In this document: one piece after another, positions 5,386-54,131 of the stretch
How positions within the stretch are numbered: the stretch's first letter is position 1
Layout of the letters: the number at the start of each line of letters is the position of its first letter
Assembly (NCBI GenBank): GCA_019750255.1
Contig: JAIEOU010000007.1
Location: 1-57,280, forward strand
Reading direction: 5' to 3'
DNA: 57,280 nucleotides
Origin: Patescibacteria group bacterium
GTDB lineage: Bacteria > Patescibacteriota > Minisyncoccia > Phycocordibacterales > UBA918
Made by a program: the position numbers and the translations under genes
Notes under the pieces: model-generated
Databases searched by the model: none
Told to the model about the DNA's origin: nothing
Seen by the model: only the letters and a program-made list of their open reading frames with translations

Positions 5386-6969
5386 CTACCCTTCTCTCCT
5401 TAATCGCTTCAACAGAAAATCACGACTGAGCGTACTTAAAAACCATCCCACTTTCGGGCCACTGTCTTTTCCCAGAAAAGCGATGTACATTGCACCAAAA
5501 AATTCTTTTGGACTGAGGCCGCTCGTTTCGCGGACGGCATGTATAAGTTCATGAAGCGTCTGTCCATCTGTTGAATCGACTTGTTCCACCTTCTCAGCCA
5601 ACAGACGCAACGCATCTGATTGCGATTCTGTAAGTGCGGCAACAGCGTCAGGAAGTTGTTCCTGTAGTGTAAAAATAAATTTTTCGTCAGCATACTCAGA
5701 TAGCCAGCGCTTAGCATAATGCGACCGTAGCGCTATTTCTGCCCTATCCTCATCAGTGAGATCATCGCCCTTCTGTACAGCCACTTCTGTATAAACATCC
5801 ATGTGCGGCATTTGGACCAGAAATGCAATCTGAGAAAACCTCGGTAGGTAGCGCTTGGTAATTGGCGTACGCTCCTCTGGTACATGTGCAAAGGTAAATA
5901 GCTGTGAATCATCATCAACGACCCCGCTCCAGTATTTTTCTGCTAAGCGGTCATAGGTATCAAACAGTACGGGAATGACATCGCCATCAGGATCAAAATC
6001 CAACTGGCGGTTAATGGGGGACTTAAGAAGGAGGAGACGCAATATATGTGGTGGTAAGATCTCTGCCATCTCAACTGCGGTGGCAGCATTCCCCTTTGAG
6101 GATGACATCTTTTTACCTCCCACAAGGAAAAATTCATTAAAGACACCGTAGGGCGGTTCGTGGTCAAATACTTCACGACAGATAGCTTCGGCCACCTGAC
6201 GCGCACCCCCTTTAGTGTAGTGGTCTTTGCCTCCGCCCTCAAAACACACACCCTTAGCCACAAACTTGGCTGCCCAATCGAGCTTCCAAGGAAACTTAGC
6301 ATTACCGTCAAACGGAGAGACCGTTCCGGTGTGTCCACAACCCTTGGCCCAGGCGATAGTGTCAGAACTACAGGTATACGTGACGAGCTCGTTATCCCAA
6401 GCAGTAATCCTCGTTGCGCTTAAATTACCACACTGCTCACACATTACATTAAGTGGGTACCAGTCCTCGGACTTTTGACTACCTGATACGCGCAAGTAAA
6501 TCTCACGTACCGTAGCCCGCCTATCGAGTGCCTTGCGAATCAGGTCGTTCATTACCCCGCTGCGGTAGAGCTCACTCGCACGATAAATTTGTGCATCAAA
6601 ACCAATGTTTTTTAGCACGGCTACATACTCTTGCCCATACAACTCGGCAAAGTTTGCAAAACCTGGCTCCGGCGAGGGAATGTTACATAACGGCACCCCC
6701 ATGTACTGCTCATACACCGCAGCATCAAGATAACTAGGAATACCGTCCATGGCATCAAAATCATTGATCTCAAAGTGGAACTCTACTAGATGTCCCCGCG
6801 AACGGAGCACGTCAGCGACAATGGCATGCAATGTCGCACTACGCAGCGATCCAACGTGCACGCGACCAGATGCTGTCTTCTCATCACGCACGATTATAGG
6901 CAGTCCGGCTTTGATAGTGTCCGCATAACGCCGCTCGACTTCGTCGGCAATAGTATCCGCCCAAAACAT
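5386..6969 (-). CDS. lysS: Class I lysyl-tRNA synthetase
   Basis: MFWAD start, TASGRVHVGSLR (HIGH), Cys pairs, GGKDH, KMSSSKG (KMSKS), GKDSGPK. Confidence 0.95.
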   Translation of the reverse strand: MFWADTIADEVERRYADTIKAGLPIIVRDEKTASGRVHVGSLRSATLHAIVADVLRSRGHLVEFHFEINDFDAMDGIPSYLDAAVYEQYMGVPLCNIPSPEPGFANFAELYGQEYVAVLKNIGFDAQIYRASELYRSGVMNDLIRKALDRRATVREIYLRVSGSQKSEDWYPLNVMCEQCGNLSATRITAWDNELVTYTCSSDTIAWAKGCGHTGTVSPFDGNAKFPWKLDWAAKFVAKGVCFEGGGKDHYTKGGARQVAEAICREVFDHEPPYGVFNEFFLVGGKKMSSSKGNAATAVEMAEILPPHILRLLLLKSPINRQLDFDPDGDVIPVLFDTYDRLAEKYWSGVVDDDSQLFTFAHVPEERTPITKRYLPRFSQIAFLVQMPHMDVYTEVAVQKGDDLTDEDRAEIALRSHYAKRWLSEYADEKFIFTLQEQLPDAVAALTESQSDALRLLAEKVEQVDSTDGQTLHELIHAVRETSGLSPKEFFGAMYIAFLGKDSGPKVGWFLSTLSRDFLLKRLRREG

Positions 6970-6997
6970 ATTGGCTAATCCTAGCGTATGGACTGGT

Positions 6998-7043
6998 AAA
7001 AGAAAAGGCCCGCACACCTAAAGGTGTGCGGGCCTTTTCTTTT
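6998..7043. terminator. Bidirectional intrinsic terminator (serves the greA transcript)
   Basis: Perfect 22-bp inverted repeat AAAAGAAAAGGCCCGCACACCT / AGGTGTGCGGGCCTTTTCTTTT. Confidence 0.85.
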
Positions 7044-7044
7044 C

Positions 7045-7395
7045 AAACACAGTCGGGCTTCGCCCTCCTTGTTTCTGCTTATCCCTTTGAAGGTCGAATC
7101 CAGCAGAGTTTTACTAAATTCTTCTACTCTCACAGCTCGCCGCCACTACTTTAGCAAATACTACCAGCATATTCTCCTCTTTAAAGTCGAATCTGCTCAA
7201 GCGATTGCATAAGCAAAATATAGTCGGACTTTGTCCTCCTTATTTCTGTTAGACATAGCTCGCCGCCGCTACTTTGAATAAAGGGCCTCTTATTTACAAA
7301 CACAAACGCTGGATTCTCCCTTTAAGGGTCGAATCCAGCGAAGTGTTTGCCTAATCAAAACATAGTCGGGCTTCGCCCTCCTTGTTTCTGCTTAT
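7045..7395. repeat. Cluster of REP-like palindromes downstream of greA
   Basis: 33-bp direct repeat AGTCGGGCTTCGCCCTCCTTGTTTCTGCTTATC at 7051 and 7363; further related hairpins at ~7166-7197, 7216-7247 and 7307-7340. Confidence 0.85.
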
Positions 7396-7866
7396 CTACT
7401 CAACCTTAAGTACTTTGTACTTCTGCTTCCCTGCTGGAGTATCAAAGGTAAATTCATCTCCCTTGGTCTTTCCCATGAGGGCTTCACCAAGCGGTGAGAG
7501 GTACGAGAGTTTGTGTTCGTGGATATTTGCCTCGTCTGAACCCACAATGGTGTAGGTGCGGCTATCTTTATCCTTATCCTTTTGAATTACCACAATCGAA
7601 CCAAGACCGACTGCACCACCCTTCTTTTCATGAGCAACAATTTTTGCTTCTTTAATTGTCTTTTCGAGGTAGCCGATACGTTCCTCAATCGCTGCCTGCA
7701 TATCACGTGCCTCTTGGTATTCAGCGTTTTCTGAAAGGTCACCGAGCGACCGAGCGTACTCAAGTGATTCGGCTACTTCCTTGCGGCGAACGGTTTTGAG
7801 GTGCTCGAGTTCCTTCTTTAGCTCATCAAACTTCTCGGAGGTCAGGAACGCTTGTGTTTCAGACAT
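7396..7866 (-). CDS. greA: Transcription elongation factor GreA
   Basis: GDLSENAEY and SYLSPLGEALMGK motifs. Confidence 0.97.
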   Translation of the reverse strand: MSETQAFLTSEKFDELKKELEHLKTVRRKEVAESLEYARSLGDLSENAEYQEARDMQAAIEERIGYLEKTIKEAKIVAHEKKGGAVGLGSIVVIQKDKDKDSRTYTIVGSDEANIHEHKLSYLSPLGEALMGKTKGDEFTFDTPAGKQKYKVLKVE

Positions 7867-7930
7867 AATTCAAATTAGTTGTCAGTATTATAAGCATAAA
7901 TAAGGAGACCGCAAGGTCGACTATATTTTG

Positions 7931-8402
7931 CTTATGCAATCGCTTGAGCAGATTCGACCTTCAAGGGGAGAATCTGCTCGTAGCGACTTGCTAAGCAGAG
8001 TCCATTGCCTGTTTTGCTTCCCGAAAACTACCACGCGTTATCTCCCTTTGAGGTCGAAACGAGTGAAGTTTTCAAATAAGGAAAATATAGTCGCAGCTAC
8101 GCTGCTCCTTATTTCTCCTTATGCAATCGCTTGAGCAGATTCGACCTTCAAGGGGAGAATCTGCTCGTAGCGACTTGCTAAGCAGAGTCCATTGCCTGTT
8201 TTGCTTCCCGAAAACTACCACGCGTTATCTCCCTTTGAGGTCGAAACGAGTGAAGTTTTCAAATAAGGAAAATATAGTCGCAGCTACGCTGCTCCTTATT
8301 TCTCCTTATGCAATCGCTTGAGCAGATTCGACCTTCAAGGGGAGAATCTGCTCGTAGCGACTTGCTAAGCAGAGTTCTTTGCCTGTTTTGCTTCCTGAAA
8401 AC
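7931..8402. repeat. 187-bp tandem repeat (~2.5 units) made of REP-like palindromes
   Basis: Units start at 7931, 8118 and 8305; first two appear identical, third is partial with a few substitutions. Confidence 0.92.
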
Positions 8403-8412
8403 CGAGTCGGCA

Positions 8413-10125
8413 CTACATCCCTTCTTGCTTCTCCTTAATACCAAGATACTCCGGACGCTCCACCTCCATCCACTTCACCACATCACCCATAATCCGAGTG
8501 GCCCCGAGCATGTTGCTGCGCGGCGCCCGATCCATCATCATAATAAAAGCATACTGTGGCTTCTCATACGGAAAGAAACCGGCCGCCCACGAGTTTACGT
8601 ACGCGTTCCCTGCCCCTACTTCAGCCGTACCCGACTTTGCCGCAATCGCGACCAGCGGCCGGTCGAGCGAACGAGCGGTTCCGCCTGGATAATTTGTTGT
8701 CATGCGCATACCCTCATGAATGACGCGCAATTTGGCCAGGTCCATATCAATAGTTTTTGTCTCTCCTTGGGCCCCCTTCACAACATGAGGAGTCACGAGC
8801 GTGCCGCCCGAAGCTAAGGCCCCGTAGGCCCGCAACATCTGGAGTGGTGTCGTGAGGAAACCAAACTGACCAATTGCAGTGAAGTACGTATCACCGAGTC
8901 TCCAGTCATCGTCAAATTCTTTTCTCTTCCATGCCGGATCAGGGACTACCCCCACCTGCTCTTCTCCGAGAATCATTCCGGTACTACTCCCTAAGCCAAA
9001 GCGACGATAGTAATCAGCCATTTTGGTGATACCAAGTCCTCGTTGCTCGCCAAATCCACCTCCCACAATGTAGAAATAAACATTTGAGGAGTAGGCGATA
9101 GCTTCCCGCATATCCATAATCCCGTGAGCACGCCAGTCAGTAAAGCGGGACGGGTTCTGTGGATTATAAGGATTGGGAACCACAATTTCACCAGTACTTA
9201 CAAATTGCTTTTCCGGCGTGACTATTCCTTCAGCCAGCGCCGCATACGCTACAAATGGCTTCACAATCGATCCGGGAATATACACTCCCCCGACCACTTT
9301 ATTTAGAAACGGCAGACGAGTGTCCTTGTTGTACGACTCGATAGTACCAGTATCATCACCGTCGGCCATGATTTCCGGATCGTACGAAGGGAAACTGGTG
9401 AGCGCGAGGATTTCTCCCGTATGAATATCCATGATCGCTCCAGCCCCACTACGAAAACCGGCAGACGCACTGCTTGTGGCGATGATCTGATACATAGCCT
9501 CCGAAAGACCGGCATCAATTGAAAGTGTGAGAGGTTGGCCGGGCACGGCTGCTTCGATCGAATGTTCCGAAACAATTTCACCAAGAGCATCAACAGAAAT
9601 AATTTTTTTGCCGTTTTGCCCTTTTAAAATCGTGTCATAGGCGGATTCCGAACCACTAATGCCCTCGTATTCGGTTCGGTAGAAAAAACCCTTCTTATCC
9701 CGCTGTGGGTAGCTCACGTACCCAAGCACGTGCCCCATCCCCAAAGCGTCAGTATAAGCGCGGATCGGAAAGTCATAGAGACCTTTTTCATCAAGCTCGT
9801 TCCGGGCTACCATTTCGCCGCGACGATCATAAATTACTCCGCGTTCAGCAATAATTGCAGTCTGCGAAACACTATTATTATCCGCAATCGCGCTAAAATC
9901 GTCGCCGCGCACTACCTGAAGTGTATACACCTTACTCAGGAAAAGACCGGCCACAATCATAAAGGCAAAACCCACCAGCGAAAGGCTGCGTCGGGTTATG
10001 GGCAGCTCCCGCTTACCCTCAAGACGCATCTGGTCAAACGCCGGAATGTTGGATGAGTCGAGAAAAATTTCATCCACTTCAACGGGACGCACTTTTCGGG
10101 CACGAGACAAGAAAGGTAATTTCAT
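8413..10125 (-). CDS. mrdA: Penicillin-binding protein 2 (MrdA)
   Basis: ERGVIYDR, PGSIVKP (SxxK), SSN, KSGTAE; follows mreBC(D); start set at MKLPF. Confidence 0.9.
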   Translation of the reverse strand: MKLPFLSRARKVRPVEVDEIFLDSSNIPAFDQMRLEGKRELPITRRSLSLVGFAFMIVAGLFLSKVYTLQVVRGDDFSAIADNNSVSQTAIIAERGVIYDRRGEMVARNELDEKGLYDFPIRAYTDALGMGHVLGYVSYPQRDKKGFFYRTEYEGISGSESAYDTILKGQNGKKIISVDALGEIVSEHSIEAAVPGQPLTLSIDAGLSEAMYQIIATSSASAGFRSGAGAIMDIHTGEILALTSFPSYDPEIMADGDDTGTIESYNKDTRLPFLNKVVGGVYIPGSIVKPFVAYAALAEGIVTPEKQFVSTGEIVVPNPYNPQNPSRFTDWRAHGIMDMREAIAYSSNVYFYIVGGGFGEQRGLGITKMADYYRRFGLGSSTGMILGEEQVGVVPDPAWKRKEFDDDWRLGDTYFTAIGQFGFLTTPLQMLRAYGALASGGTLVTPHVVKGAQGETKTIDMDLAKLRVIHEGMRMTTNYPGGTARSLDRPLVAIAAKSGTAEVGAGNAYVNSWAAGFFPYEKPQYAFIMMMDRAPRSNMLGATRIMGDVVKWMEVERPEYLGIKEKQEGM

Positions 10126-10376
10126 ATAACCATTTCGGGTGTCCTCAAGCGCGGCCGAATAAACATCATCAGTAGCACTATCACCACCACACACAATGTC
10201 AGCCACGGTACCCGAGAGAACACCCCGTAAAAGGCATCTATAAGGACCGCTACGGCAATGAGCTCGTAACCAGTGTACCGAGTTGTATATGGGATAGTCA
10301 TGAGCGCCACAGCCCACCACGGGAAGAAGAGCGCACCCATAATTATTAACGCAAGTGATAACAGACGGACTATCAT
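10122..10376 (-). CDS. Small membrane protein in the mreD position
   Basis: Three hydrophobic segments; 4-bp overlaps with both mreC and mrdA. Confidence 0.6.
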   Translation of the reverse strand: MIVRLLSLALIIMGALFFPWWAVALMTIPYTTRYTGYELIAVAVLIDAFYGVFSRVPWLTLCVVVIVLLMMFIRPRLRTPEMVI

Positions 10377-11332
10377 AATGGTGTAAGCTCCGACTCAGGA
10401 AGCACATCAGTCGAGGTAGGGGTTGAGCTGGGGACTAGGAACTCCGCCACTGCTGGGATGTAGAAATATGAAGCGAGCAAGGCTTGAGTGGATGAAGCAA
10501 TAACCTCGGCCGCAGGAGGCGCGTCGGGTTTTTCACCGACCGTTACGTAGCGCAAAGACTGGATCGCTTCGGGCAATGTGACATAGGCATATTGTTCGGG
10601 TTGTGTCGAAGCATTCTCTACGTGACTGACCTGCCCGTACACGCCGGCATCATATGCCAACATGACCACCAAATCGCCAGGCATTACGCGTATACCTTGG
10701 GCAAACCGAACGCGTGAGACCCCACTACCCTGCCCCTCCATAGTAGCTACGAGCTTAGCTGCCGGAATATACACGGTCGACTGGAACCCTGCGGTGGTAA
10801 CCAACTCAACAAACGCATGGCGTGCACTTGTCTCCACCACACTACCAATAACCACATCACGGCCGGCAAACACCGGAGATCCAACAACCACCCCATCATC
10901 CGCTCCCTTATCAATCTGTATCAAGTCGTAAGCGAGCCACGGCGGCCGGGCCACCACCCGAGACAGCAGCCGTTTACTGGGCAATCCTTCCCCATACACA
11001 CTTCGAAGTGCAATGTTTTCTTCGGTAAGTCGATTGATGGTTAAAGTATGAGCCGTGCTGGAGTCAATCTGCGCACGTAATTCCTCAATCTCAGCCCGAA
11101 GCGCACTACGCTCTCTCAGATATGTCGGTATCATCCCTGGTGACTCGCGCACCCAGGACGCCACCCGAACAAACGGTGCCATAGCGATATCACTCACCAC
11201 TCCCATGAGTGTGGGTAATAAAAAACCGGCCGCAAGGACAAGGCCGAGAAAAATAAGCGTAAGCCGATGCCGCCGCTCACTGAAGAAGCTGCGGCGAGAG
11301 CTCGCCTTCGTTGTCGATGAGAACTTCTTCAT
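10373..11332 (-). CDS. mreC: Rod shape-determining protein MreC
   Basis: TM, coiled coil (LTEENIALR), IDKGADDGVVVGSPV; start set at MKKFS, overlapping the end of mreB. Confidence 0.88.
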   Translation of the reverse strand: MKKFSSTTKASSRRSFFSERRHRLTLIFLGLVLAAGFLLPTLMGVVSDIAMAPFVRVASWVRESPGMIPTYLRERSALRAEIEELRAQIDSSTAHTLTINRLTEENIALRSVYGEGLPSKRLLSRVVARPPWLAYDLIQIDKGADDGVVVGSPVFAGRDVVIGSVVETSARHAFVELVTTAGFQSTVYIPAAKLVATMEGQGSGVSRVRFAQGIRVMPGDLVVMLAYDAGVYGQVSHVENASTQPEQYAYVTLPEAIQSLRYVTVGEKPDAPPAAEVIASSTQALLASYFYIPAVAEFLVPSSTPTSTDVLPESELTPL

Positions 11333-28317: not shown

Positions 28318-30207
28318 ATGTTCGTCATCCATGTCATCCCCCTCATGCGCGCGACGACCGTCGAATCACTCTCCTATTTTTCAGCTCAAGAATACCCCAT
28401 TGGTGCCATCGTCCATGTGCCGGTACGCGGCAAAAGCTACCAAGCGATAGTGACCGAAGTGGGAACCGTAAGTACCGCAAAGACGTCACTGAAGCTCGCG
28501 CACTACAGCCTGCGGAAGCTACCCGAACAAGCTGATAGTGTAGTGTTACCAAGGTCTCTCTATGAAACAGCCAAGGCGCTCGCCGCCACCTACCCAGCCA
28601 CCTTAGGCAGCATCCTCTACCACTTACTCCCGAGTGAAGTGCGTAGTGGCGAGCGCCCCTACCCCGCCGCCGGTAGTCATGTCCACAACGAAGACACAAC
28701 GCCAGCCATATTGACGGCTCGGCGAGACGAACGCATCACCAACTATAAGAGCCACGTACGCAGCGTGTTTGCCCATCGCGGATCAGTACTGTTAGTTGTC
28801 CCTACTTCGGTAGAGGTCGCGCAGATCGCTGCATTGCTTGCGCACGGCATTGAAGATCGAGTGATAGCGCTCGGCGGCCATTTAGGGAAGCGCGAACTCG
28901 ATAAAGCCTTTAAGGCGGTTGCGGATACGACCATTGCTAAACTTATCGTAACCACTCCAGCGCATGCGTATATCGAACGAGCGGATTTACTTTCAATCAT
29001 TATCGAAGGGGCAGCGAACCCACTCTACCGCGGGCGGACCCGCCCCTACCTCGATCACCGCTTGGCACTCATGCACTATGCCCGTGTTGGTGGACGCTCG
29101 CTTATACTCGGCGACAGCGCACCACGTACGGAAGACGAAGTCGCGCGCCGTGACGAGCGCTACCTTACACTCGGTGAAGGCGGTAAGCGCATTGCTTTTC
29201 CAGCGTCACTCACCGTAATCAAGCATCGTGATAAGCCGACCCCGGAAATTCCGTTTAGCCTCCTCTCGCCCGAACTCGCTATTCATTTGCGCACTTCGCT
29301 AGAGGCACGGGAGCACGTTTTTCTATTTGGGGCGCGACGGGGCCTCGCACCAGTCGTGGCCTGCCAGGACTGTGGGTTTATATTTCGCTGCCCTGACTCG
29401 GGTGCGCCGTACTCACTTTTGCGCACCTACCGGGACCACGTTGAGGAACGCTGGTTTGTATCGGCCACATCGGGAGCGCGGGTTCGGGCGGCCGATGTCT
29501 GCACCCAGTGCGGCAGCTGGCGTCTACGAGAACGTGGTATTGGTATTCAACAGGTATTTGATGAGGTGAAGGTGCAATTCCCTACCGCACCAGTATTTCT
29601 TTTTGATAGCACTACCGCTACCACCCCTAAGACCGCTCAAAAAATCATCGACCGCTTTTATGCTGAAAAAGGCGCCTTTCTTGTAGGTACCGCTATGGCC
29701 ATACCGTATCTCAACCCAACCGTGGATATGAGCGCAATTATATCGCTTGATGCCGCACGGAGTATCCCGACATGGCGAGCTGACGAGTGGATGTTTCATT
29801 TTCTACTCCACCTTCGGGAAATTAGTCGTCGTGAAGTGTATGTGCAGACCCGCACCGATGAAGACAACCTCCTTACCTTCGCCGCACGCGGAGCGCTTGA
29901 GCGCTTTTATGATGACGAAATTCGTCTGCGCGAACAACTTTCGTATCCGCCGTTTGCCACGCTCATCCTTTTTTCCTGGACAGGCCCGACTGCGACCATA
30001 AAAAATATCGATAGCTTGATAGCGACCGCGACCACCCCGTATACCCCACAGTTCTATAACGACCCGCTATCAACCCCAGAAAAGGCCACGCGTCACGCCC
30101 TTATTCGCCTTAAGCAAACCGACGCATACTACCCCGACCTCATTGGCAGAATACGGAGCCTCCCTCCTTATATAAAAATTGAGGTAAATCCCGACAGAAT
30201 CGTTTAA
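28318..30207 (+). CDS. priA: Primosomal protein N' (PriA), degenerate helicase
   Basis: N-terminal VHVPVRGK domain, VLLVVP, RRG..CQDC, GIGIQQV, VGT, VQT, YPPF, IEVNP; sits before def-fmt. Confidence 0.85.
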   Translation: MFVIHVIPLMRATTVESLSYFSAQEYPIGAIVHVPVRGKSYQAIVTEVGTVSTAKTSLKLAHYSLRKLPEQADSVVLPRSLYETAKALAATYPATLGSILYHLLPSEVRSGERPYPAAGSHVHNEDTTPAILTARRDERITNYKSHVRSVFAHRGSVLLVVPTSVEVAQIAALLAHGIEDRVIALGGHLGKRELDKAFKAVADTTIAKLIVTTPAHAYIERADLLSIIIEGAANPLYRGRTRPYLDHRLALMHYARVGGRSLILGDSAPRTEDEVARRDERYLTLGEGGKRIAFPASLTVIKHRDKPTPEIPFSLLSPELAIHLRTSLEAREHVFLFGARRGLAPVVACQDCGFIFRCPDSGAPYSLLRTYRDHVEERWFVSATSGARVRAADVCTQCGSWRLRERGIGIQQVFDEVKVQFPTAPVFLFDSTTATTPKTAQKIIDRFYAEKGAFLVGTAMAIPYLNPTVDMSAIISLDAARSIPTWRADEWMFHFLLHLREISRREVYVQTRTDEDNLLTFAARGALERFYDDEIRLREQLSYPPFATLILFSWTGPTATIKNIDSLIATATTPYTPQFYNDPLSTPEKATRHALIRLKQTDAYYPDLIGRIRSLPPYIKIEVNPDRIV

Positions 30208-30210
30208 GTG

Positions 30211-30346
30211 GAAACAAGCAGGACGTAGTCCGACCATGTTTTGCTTATGCGAGTGCTTCGTTAGATTCGACTCTTAAAAGGAGAATCTAACGAAGCGAGT
30301 TGTGAAGGAGAAATAACGAGCAACGAAGTTACGAATATATTTTCCT
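30211..30346 (+). repeat. Cluster of the REP-like G.A-mismatch palindromes downstream of priA
   Basis: CTTCGTTAGATTC-GA-ctcttaaaag-GA-GAATCTAACGAAG, flanked by two GAAA(C/T)AA..ggac-gta-gtcc / gcaac-gaa-gttac type hairpins. Confidence 0.75.
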
Positions 30347-30490
30347 ACTGTCGACGCTTCGCTATCTTTCGACCTCGCTGGGAGAAAATGGTGGCAGGGG
30401 CCGACTAATGAAAAATCAGAAAATCCCCTAGAGTAGTTTAAAAAGTACCAGGCTCGCAAAACCCTAAAATTCATTGTACAGTAGTGGCAC

Positions 30491-53256: not shown

Positions 53257-53919
53257 ATGCACATCCGACTCGAAGAATCCTGGAAGCAAGCGCTCGCTTC
53301 TGAACTCGAGACTGAGTATTTTAAAGAGCTTACTGTTTTTGTACGCGAGGCCTACCTAAACGGCACCGTCTACCCGCCGCCAAAAGATTTATTTGCCGCT
53401 TTTGACGACTGTCAGTTTGACCAAGTGAAGGTAGTAATTCTAGGACAAGATCCCTACCACAGTCCAGAGCAAGCGCATGGCCTGGCCTTTTCAGTACCAG
53501 ACGGCGTAGCCATTCCACCCTCACTTAAAAATATCTATAAGGAAATTAAAAACGATATCGGTACCGATATTCCCCCTTCTGGCAATCTCGAACGCTGGGC
53601 AGATCAGGGTGTATTCCTACTCAACAGCACCCTCACGGTCGCGGCCGGCGCCCCCGGCTCACATCAAGGCAAAGGCTGGGAGGAATGGACTGATGCTGCC
53701 GTTAAAGCCCTGTCAGAAGAGCGCGAGCACCTGGTATTCCTGCTCTGGGGAAATTTCGCCAAGAAAAAGGGTGCGCACATCGACCGCACAAAGCATCTGG
53801 TGCTCGAGGCTGCCCACCCTTCCCCACTCGGTGCCTATAAAGGTTTTTTTGGCAGCAGGCATTTTTCAAAGACCAATGCATATTTAGAAGCACAAGGACA
53901 AAAGCCGATTGTATGGTGA
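53257..53919 (+). CDS. ung: Uracil-DNA glycosylase (family 1)
   Basis: GQDPYH, PPSLKNI, LLNS.LTV, HPSPL. Confidence 0.97.
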   Translation: MHIRLEESWKQALASELETEYFKELTVFVREAYLNGTVYPPPKDLFAAFDDCQFDQVKVVILGQDPYHSPEQAHGLAFSVPDGVAIPPSLKNIYKEIKNDIGTDIPPSGNLERWADQGVFLLNSTLTVAAGAPGSHQGKGWEEWTDAAVKALSEEREHLVFLLWGNFAKKKGAHIDRTKHLVLEAAHPSPLGAYKGFFGSRHFSKTNAYLEAQGQKPIVW

Positions 53920-54108
53920 GGAGAAACAAGGAATAGCAAAACCATGACTGTTTTCTCCTTCCCGAAAACTACCACTCGTTATCTCGCTCTACGGCTCGAA
54001 ACGAGTGAAGTTTTCAAATAAGGAAAATATAGTCGGCACTTCGTACCTCCTTATTTCTCCTTATGCCGAGGCCCCGCTACTTTCTCCCATTCAGGGAGAA
54101 AGTAGCGG
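53919..54108. repeat. Dispersed copy of the G.A-mismatch mosaic repeat plus a perfect 15-bp hairpin
   Basis: 53958-54066 matches 8017-8124 except mainly in the inner stems and loops; hairpin CCGCTACTTTCTCCC-attca-GGGAGAAAGTAGCGG at 54074-54108. Confidence 0.88.
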
Positions 54109-54131
54109 CCGCAGCCGGCCACACTCACTAT

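Follow-up and report, generated by a model that had tools for sequence, protein, structure and literature searches.

What are the palindromes that fill the intergenic DNA on both sides of greA in an ultra-small bacterium of the Patescibacteria group? The 57,280-nt stretch considered here (the window; contig JAIEOU010000007.1 of assembly GCA_019750255.1) is contig 10 of a source genome of 950 kb in 16 contigs, which is 99.9% complete and has 50% GC. The original prediction described two hairpin types, A and B, around greA and took them for a repetitive extragenic palindrome (REP) or bacterial interspersed mosaic element (BIME) system. The sequence at 7045-8402 reads as claimed: the spacers 7045-7395 and 7867-8412 consist almost wholly of these two types, and the pattern AAGGAG-N9-14-CGACTAT is found six times in the window (0.01 expected, from 100 shuffles), which places the hairpins around greA far above chance. 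We consider it probable that the palindromes form one non-coding, non-autonomous repeat family of Paceibacteria-type bacteria of the candidate phyla radiation (CPR), which has been moved via a folded single strand. The family has multiplied in this genome, with copies at or on stop codons, and it is a REP/BIME-like yet distinct structured repeat.

The two hairpins are the halves of one unit of ~105 nt in which B is followed by A on the same strand. In nhmmer searches of the whole genome (E<=0.01) 58 B and 64 A hairpins were found, including 50 direct same-strand pairs of B followed by A. Alignment of 45 of these pairs with 45 nt of flanking DNA (the remaining five lie at contig edges) revealed sharp ends and unrelated flanks. 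Both hairpin types are real, but they are not independent of each other, as the direct pairs and their sharp boundaries show. Hairpin B reads TAAGGAG-AAATA-AG-GA-[stem-loop]-GA-CT-A-TATTT-TCCTTA and comprises an outer stem, the AAATA/TATTT and AG/CT segments, a tandem G·A, a short GC stem and a triloop cap. Hairpin A reads TGCAGGCGCC-TCGTTACTTT-(T/C)GA-(G/C)C-[loop]-G(C/G)-GA(A/G)-AAAGTAACGG-CGGCGAGCTGC, with a long stem, a tandem G·A, a stem of 2-3 bp and a loop of 4-7 nt; the hairpins measure ~48 and ~60 nt.

Of 65 distinct B copies 54 have the tandem G·A/G·A internal loop, as do 53 of the 65 A copies. Each of the seven inner stems that had been listed for B was recovered, whereas the cGNAg loops assigned to them fit only about half of the B copies: the apex is a triloop in 43 of 65 distinct copies (GNA in 22, ANA in 15, other in 6), and the closing pair of the loop is C:G in 44 of 62. 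Similarly, the proposed 5'-CGAC/5'-GGAG context of the mismatch holds for the A copies of the window but not for 21 of 65 A copies genome-wide, which carry (T/C)GAGC..GCGA(A/G) in its place. Some B hairpins, among them those of loci L212, L234, L245, L280 and L339 (L and G numbers denote loci and genomes), have a second tandem G·A nested in the first, GGAG-YGAGC-AAA-GCGAR-CGAC, which is the same GA-GC..GC-GA module as the apex of hairpin A. A coding-gene reading of the short ATG..TGA frame at the B/A junction was rejected by inspection: the frame varies in length, and its changes are compensatory rather than codon-wise.

Conservation of the fold was assessed at two levels. For 26 canonical units RNAalifold predicted 33 pairs, 27 of them with compensatory change. 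A covariance model of the BA unit (R1) was then used to align 67 units: this genome contributed 48, of which 15 lie in the window, and relatives the other 19; 65 rows are distinct. In these rows 94.5% of base-pair cells are paired, compared with 75.8% after shuffling and 36-44% with slid partners, both-sided change occurs at 31 of the 33 pairs, and the covariation score of 0.504 (vs 0.179) is reached by none of 500 shuffles; because the alignment follows the model and its sequences share ancestry, the values are tilted in favour of the structure, but the margin is still very large. The covariation that the original prediction had proposed as a check is thereby borne out, at a median identity of 64% among the 45 distinct units of this genome.

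The same data discriminate between the strands. G·T-type pairs outnumber A·C pairs (104 vs 25, or 58 vs 25 without one conserved T·G pair), which marks one particular strand as the folded strand, and among 58 units the G·A strand is the more stable of the two in 52 under RNA parameters and in 42 under DNA parameters. Compensatory change preserves the fold of the G·A strand in nearly all copies, in agreement with the earlier proposal of selection for structure on a single strand.

Model R1 has 67 matches in this genome, so copies do exist beyond the window as expected of a repeat family, and at ~105 nt each they are estimated to occupy ~0.7% of the 950 kb. About seven contig ends (among them C2, C5, C7, C8, C12 and C13) fall within units; the repeat is a main cause of assembly breaks in this genome, and its true copy number is therefore probably above the count. 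By crude longest-open reading frame (ORF) gene calls, 20 of the 67 units lie sense and 18 antisense between codirectional genes, seven lie between convergent and three between divergent genes, 11 fall in doubtful short ORFs and eight at contig edges. For GA-type B hairpins, judged against ORFs of at least 100 aa, the counts are 20 sense, 10 antisense, 11 convergent, four divergent, five at edges and two inside, and 14 of 52 overlap the stop codon of the incoming gene. The proximity to stop codons noted for four clusters of the window was confirmed: the distance is 1 nt at greA, the end of the penicillin-binding protein 2 (PBP2)-type transpeptidase gene (mrdA-like) is overlapped, the TAA of the PriA-like gene lies inside a unit, and another cluster follows the UDG gene. 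The units sit 5' of native terminators and, being located between stop codon and terminator, are predicted to be co-transcribed.

Comparison with relatives reveals empty sites. At contig 14:42575 a unit lies exactly after the last sense codon of a gene and before a TAA; in G010 and G053 the site is empty, the gene ending GTA/GGA-TAG with a short spacer, and in G020 a unit occupies the same spacer in the opposite orientation. At contig 16:85305 five of five relatives read ATC-TAA followed by the terminator with no unit, whereas in this genome a unit has inserted at the TAA, ahead of the terminator. The corresponding search for contig 16:12286 gave no exact junction, with only one flank syntenic in relatives. 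Different species have acquired copies independently at one and the same intergenic site.

Once in place, neighbouring copies recombine to give tandem, inverted and chimeric mosaics. Across greA a 71-nt inverted repeat is formed by 7161-7231, which is 90% complementary to 7913-7983. Seven linked differences at 7183-7207 in the public run X1 restore the pairing of hairpin A in the unit at 7148-7258 (-24.4 kcal/mol in the run vs -15.2 kcal/mol in the assembly), which identifies the assembly arm as a chimera that matches the copy across greA. A joint of 7218 to 7362, skipping 143 nt, is present in all four public DNA runs and most likely comes from other repeat copies. BIMEs are mosaics of regularly spaced REPs in alternating orientation. 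Alternating or shared-hairpin composites are found at 8015-8184, at 53956-54125 and at contig 14:79111-79283, in addition to tandem arrays; the commonest form is the single direct B-to-A unit. The mosaic, BIME-like arrangement of the original description is supported, with units in both orientations, a shared B hairpin, tandem arrays and nesting.

Hairpin B is distributed more widely than the complete unit. Large genome surveys with R1 and with a second model of B alone (R2; 62 sequences, structure written by hand) used stricter filters and scored 24-39 candidates per genome, so their counts are lower bounds: R1 gave 1-9 matches each in 21 of 40 congeners and weak matches in four of 149 genomes from other genera of the order, while R2 matched 48 of 150 other genomes of the order (1-9 matches each), 21 of 150 genomes of the class and none in an even 150-genome sample of the phylum. 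The B hairpin alone is older and wider than the BA unit. A genome of the same class, G394 (55% complete), has 32 R2 matches, comparable to the present one, and represents an independent expansion of hairpin B. An exact B core was found in 110 stretches of metagenome DNA, and its pattern had no match in viral contigs. About 15 of 80 metagenome loci examined have full B-to-A units; the others pair B with a different second hairpin. The family matches no catalogued one, as had been anticipated: Rfam 15 at gathering thresholds matched only one tRNA in the window, a search at E<=10 over 6950-8450 returned only spurious sub-threshold matches, mostly centred on the terminator hairpin downstream of greA, and 15 metagenome loci yielded tRNA and tmRNA only. 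Our literature search found no paper on REP- or miniature inverted-repeat transposable element (MITE)-like repeats in CPR bacteria, nor one describing this repeat.

How such units could spread is a matter of conjecture from their form and placement. A trans-acting protein that binds the folded single strand may recognise the unit by its two conserved G·A loops, and such a protein would copy or move the unit to gene 3' ends, as with REP/BIME or with palindrome-associated transposable elements (PATEs) derived from IS200/IS605. The hairpins of co-transcribed units probably also serve as 3'-end or intercistronic RNA structures, like REPs. A number of results weigh against movement of this kind, and they are brought together here with the rival explanations on which they bear: they concern the mover, the ends of the unit, its orientation and the persistence of its fold.

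The link to a REP-associated tyrosine transposase (RAYT) or other Y1 HUH transposase suggested by the original prediction fails. The genome has a single Y1_Tnp gene (contig 9:10200-10874, 225 aa), which bears the HUH motif and scores 34 bits against a Pfam cut-off of 23. A true REP/RAYT system, in which the hairpins are substrates of this IS200-like, RAYT-like enzyme, would agree with the strand-specific gene-end hairpins, as in REPs, and with the sole NCBIfam match of the protein, REP_Tyr_transpos; that match, however, reaches 33.9 bits, far under the cut-off of 80. The flanks of the Y1 gene contain no unit and no B- or A-like hairpin, and the 12 Y1 loci of this genome and 11 congeners all lack a unit within ~1.5 kb (E<0.01, filters off). 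Among the 40 congeners, 11 have units and Y1, 10 units only, 10 Y1 only and nine neither; by these counts, which are descriptive only since the genomes are related, the presence of Y1 is phyletically independent of the units. G010 and G019, both 99% complete, carry seven and eight units and gave no match to this Y1 protein. We therefore regard the sole Y1 HUH gene as an unlikely mover, and a genuine REP/RAYT system as very improbable. The Y1 (IS200-like) genes of G046 (L175, ~900-1010 and 60-130) and G007 (L178, 2005-2060) are flanked by different palindromes of their own, with GGGTACCCTAGG or CCCTAGGCAAGGCCTAGGG; this looks like a genuine REP/RAYT-type pairing that is unrelated to the B-to-A units. 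Genes for a BrnT-like toxin and a CopG-type antitoxin lie directly 3' of the Y1 gene of the present genome (G000, contig 9; L058, 2037-2566). Other candidate movers fare no better: the three GIY-YIG genes of this genome do not adjoin units, contrary to the suggestion that hairpins might flank such a gene, and no match to RVT_1, TnpB (PF07282) or IS110 (PF01548) was found in this genome.

The resemblance to REP/BIME systems lies in the placement of the units and in part in their mosaic arrangement, and does not extend to REP size, tag or RAYT association. In the sources cited, a REP is a high-copy palindrome of 20-40 bp with an unpaired GTAG or CGTC tag at one end (PMC3733652), and a rayt gene is described as always flanked by two inverted cognate REPs, its presence correlating with REP abundance (PMC2817692). 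The units resemble REP, BIME and REPIN elements of Proteobacteria, such as the REPs of E. coli, in being short multicopy extragenic palindromes (58-67 copies here) mainly after coding regions, between unidirectional or convergent genes (38 of the 67 between codirectional genes), in their mosaic clusters of alternating orientation, in species- or genus-specific abundance and in being probably transcribed as hairpins. In contrast, they are ~105 nt long with two different hairpins in direct order, lack a GTAG or CGTC tag (the 3' flank being NAAGGA), have tandem G·A internal loops as their conserved features, neither flank nor correlate with a RAYT gene, and reside in a CPR bacterium, a group outside the REP papers that we found.

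Other families of small mobile DNA offer only partial parallels. IS200/IS605 elements and their hairpin-only PATEs have two distinct imperfect same-strand hairpins at their ends, no terminal inverted repeats (TIRs), no clear target duplication and a strand-specific fold, all of which the units share; the units differ by lacking a cognate TnpA that bears their hairpins (the Y1 of the genome being unlinked), a conserved tetra- or pentanucleotide 5' of the left hairpin and an orientation bias with respect to replication. In the 14 nt 5' of the unit, which starts TAAGGAGA, no conserved tetranucleotide was found. A hand tally of orientation by GC skew over the 16 contigs assigned 31 units to the leading strand and 35 to the lagging strand, so no replication-strand bias was seen, although a lagging-strand single-stranded DNA (ssDNA) mechanism of the IS608 type would predict one. 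TIR-type MITEs (Correia, RUP, Nezha) are small, non-autonomous and intergenic, and may overlap gene ends and alter promoters or terminators. The units are likewise small, non-autonomous and intergenic and overlap gene ends, but their ends, TAAGGAG.. and ..GAGCTGC, are not complementary, they have neither TIRs nor a TA duplication, and their copies, far from near-identical, have diverged strongly and with compensatory changes. Integron attC sites conserve structure over sequence, fold on one strand and directly follow a gene, with R and L boxes, extrahelical bases and a single orientation in arrays; the units share the structural conservation, the one-strand fold and the position, and differ in that their core sequence is highly conserved and both orientations occur. 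Finally, public runs with this species include soil, drinking-water and wastewater samples; none of 16 such runs is an RNA run, and insertion polymorphism was not readable in the fragmentary Logan contigs of the four DNA runs compared.

The fold and its orientation raise the possibility, which we hold only tentatively, that the unit acts first of all as RNA, as a portable module of 3' ends or intercistronic regions whose B hairpin, alone or together with a second hairpin, is read by a G·A-loop-binding protein, with spread in genomes secondary; it might be an mRNA or tRNA 3'-end protector, a processing site, or a signal for factor-dependent termination or pausing. Old copies at 64% identity still fold, in nearly all cases, and selection on each copy, for a function in the host or as RNA, accounts for this no less well than mobility does. 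Beyond the genus B lies mostly sense, directly 3' of coding genes, tRNA-CCA or tmRNA: between codirectional genes, B at non-BA metagenome loci (63 distinct) is sense in 20 and antisense in six cases, and at the 18 best order and class genome loci it is sense in seven and antisense in one, which favours an RNA-level role. At the non-BA metagenome loci the upstream same-strand ORF ends -13 to +15 nt from the B core in 24 of 34, and in six loci (L229, L230, L233, L237, L251, L262) B is a few bases 3' of tRNA genes or tmRNA. The sense excess among the GA-type B hairpins of this genome (20 to 10), the predicted co-transcription with native terminators downstream, the frequency of G·U-type pairs and the larger strand asymmetry with RNA parameters point the same way, and the gene calls behind the placement in this genome are, as stated, crude.

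Against an RNA element stand the roughly one third of copies in this genome that are antisense and the composites that carry units on both strands. Intrinsic terminators consist of a GC-rich hairpin with an immediate U-run at the end of a transcription unit; hairpin A has no following U-run, a simple terminator scan flagged only the inner B stem of two identical array copies (4 vs 1.4 expected), and B is found inside operons, as at the secY-adk junction of L263, where a terminator would be harmful. C:G-closed triloops and minimal GCGAAGC/GCAAAGC apices, the latter seen in other lineages, are classic stable mini-hairpins of DNA and make poor RNA hairpins. The triloops and GCGAAGC-type apices thus point to the ssDNA level; RNA or the non-template strand is favoured by the sense bias and by the location 3' of genes, tRNAs and tmRNA. 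No protein of the L7Ae family (PF01248) was matched in this genome. A kink-turn, in which a 3-nt bulge beside tandem G·A pairs is bound by that family, was rejected: the G·A pairs of the unit are flanked on both sides by Watson-Crick pairs without such a bulge, and PF01248 has no match. Hammerhead and other ribozyme readings were rejected for want of an Rfam match.

A further set of B hairpins forms a subfamily linked to tRNA-CCA or tmRNA (the six loci just named with L334, L348 and L350), in which the second hairpin ends ..GCGCCA-CAA, like an acceptor minihelix with CCA, and CCACAA stands on both sides. This bears on a target-guided single-strand element, in which B would carry an internal guide in its 3' outer arm, able to pair with the target (the future 5' arm of B) as well as with the 3' tail of the unit itself, by the guide logic of IS200/IS605 with a longer, variable guide; subfamilies would aim at TAAGGAG (a stop codon plus a Shine-Dalgarno-like sequence) or at CCA-CAA (tRNA ends). 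The 8 nt 3' of a unit match its first 8 nt at 3.53 of 8 positions, compared with 2.24 for 8-mers 40 nt further downstream; a unit resembles its own flank more than permuted ones (the observed value was reached in 36 of 2000 permutations). The consensus of the 3' flank reads N-A-A-G-G-A, the tRNA-linked units L334, L348 and L350 have CCACAA on both sides, and the outer stem covaries. However, the effect is weak, a target-site duplication being visible only as this direct similarity of 3' flank and unit start, and the empty sites are too diverged to tell an ancestral copy. The flank likeness and CCACAA are compatible with an end that matches the target or with a short duplication; neighbouring units, in tandem or eroded, also explain them. 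To our knowledge no enzyme for such a guide-directed element has been described, and we consider the model improbable. Somewhat less doubtful, though still at long odds, is a broader proposal that B is an undescribed protein-read single-strand module spreading through Paceibacteria without a known transposase, its 3' arm pairing with targets at gene 3' ends (a stop codon with a Shine-Dalgarno-like sequence, tRNA-CCA or tmRNA) and the module rebuilding the stop codon or CCA that it interrupts; the module would consist of AAATAAGGAG, a mini-hairpin and CGACTATATTTT, as a stack of sheared G·A and G-C pairs.

In the window itself, the minus strand is the coding strand of all genes around greA, and the features are collected in the table. 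We return to the single-strand repeat family, as the reading that we prefer, to describe its local effects.

Features of the window around greA and of the other repeat clusters (positions on the window; R1, covariance model of the BA unit)
Feature	Position	Strand	Remarks
Class-I lysyl-tRNA synthetase gene	5386-6969	-	
GC-rich terminator hairpin with flanking A and T runs	6999-7046		Marks the end of the greA transcription unit; context, outside the repeat; weak terminator-like Rfam matches only
Type B copies	7045-7083; 7206-7252; 7348-7396; 7890-7938; 8076-8123; 8263-8310	-; -; -; +; -; -	Pattern ..AAATAAG-GA-[4-5 bp stem, mostly 3-nt loop]-GA-CTATATTT..
Type A copies	7929-7991; 8116-8178; 8303-8365	+; +; +	Example GAGCAGATTC-GA-CCTTCAAGGG-GA-GAATCTGCTC
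Type A variants	7133-7215; 7257-7354; 8028-8082; 8215-8269	-; -; -; -	
Truncated unit	7045-7110	-	Complete B 7045-7083 (nhmmer E 8.4e-9) and A-apex fragment 7082-7110; R1 only 25.7 bits over 6992-7088
B-to-A unit, greA sense	7133-7258	-	B 7206-7252, A 7133-7215; R1 68 bits; A 5' arm chimeric, extra A-type 3' arm appended
B-to-A unit 1 nt past the greA stop	7257-7401	-	B 7348-7396, A 7257-7354; R1 79.9 bits; contains a nested small hairpin and a second A 3' arm
greA	7396-7866	-	Pfam GreA_GreB_N and GreA_GreB; stop codon 7396-7398; repeat units on both flanks
Canonical B-to-A unit, antisense to mrdA and greA	7884-7997	+	5' end at the greA -10 box; R1 106.6 bits
187-bp tandem repeat, 2.6 copies, 98% identity	7924-8402		Tandem Repeats Finder; each copy has an A(+) hairpin, a 36-nt linker and an A(-)+B(-) unit, B common to both A hairpins; R1 matches 8015-8128(-), 8070-8184(+), 8202-8315(-), 8257-8371(+)
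Degenerate B arm over the 3' end of the mrdA-like gene	8397-8439	-	nhmmer E 0.085; ORF end 8413
PBP2-type transpeptidase gene (mrdA-like)	8413-10407	-	
Two tandem units directly 3' of the PriA-like gene	30198-30411	+	R1 85.9 and 66.9 bits; gene with Pfam PriA_3primeBD, ORF end 30207; the first unit opens with its TAA stop (bases 1-3)
Cluster between the UDG gene (Pfam UDG) and a convergent gene	53914-54125		R1 81.5 and 48.4 bits; weak B(+), A(-)B(-) unit, A(+) using the same B

The spacer between mrdA and greA measures 546 bp in this genome, compared with 52-102 bp in 20 of 29 congeners. Congener spacers mostly bear a TTGACC-N17-TATAAT promoter, which in most of them (L060-L088) stands clearly 20 nt 5' of the greA ATG. 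In the window (7867-7940) a unit abuts the greA -10 box and no -35 remains at the proper distance; a simple scan for sigma-70-like promoters in 6900-8500 found none, and greA may depend on a hybrid promoter or on read-through from mrdA. At the other end of the spacer, the degenerate B arm probably encodes the last codons and the TAG stop of the mrdA-like gene; alignments of the protein to relatives (tblastn) end 3-10 residues short of the C-terminus.

The spacer is an insertion hot spot for several kinds of DNA: in L071 (G054) and L085 (G006) insertions of 943 bp and 401 bp with open frames lie at the same site as the array. A terminator hairpin similar to that at the end of the greA transcription unit is also present 3' of greA in relatives, and in many congeners (L060, L061, L064, L065, L068-L070, L073, L076, L077, L083 and L086) a second palindrome family lies between the greA stop and the terminator. 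It is imperfect, ~120-130 nt long, with arms ..CCAAAAT.. / ..ATTTTGAA.., differs from the B-to-A units, and is another repeat that uses the same site downstream of greA.

This work contributes the anatomy of the unit and its double G·A module, the test for the folded strand, the sites that are empty in relatives, the tests that speak against Y1, and the spread of B, with its sense bias, through order and class. CPR genomes are tiny and tightly packed, and the one studied here devotes ~0.7% of its DNA to one structured repeat. The repeat alters gene ends: the PriA-like gene takes its stop codon from a unit, and the mrdA-like gene probably its C-terminal codons. It also displaces the greA promoter. 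The covariance models allow annotators to mask or mark such elements across the order. The conserved double G·A motif provides a handle, as an oligonucleotide of ~50 nt, for catching a single-strand-binding enzyme or an RNA-binding protein from an uncultivated lineage. If the proposal of a protein-read B module with a pairing 3' arm were true, the module would be a new kind of guide-directed ssDNA or RNA mobile element.

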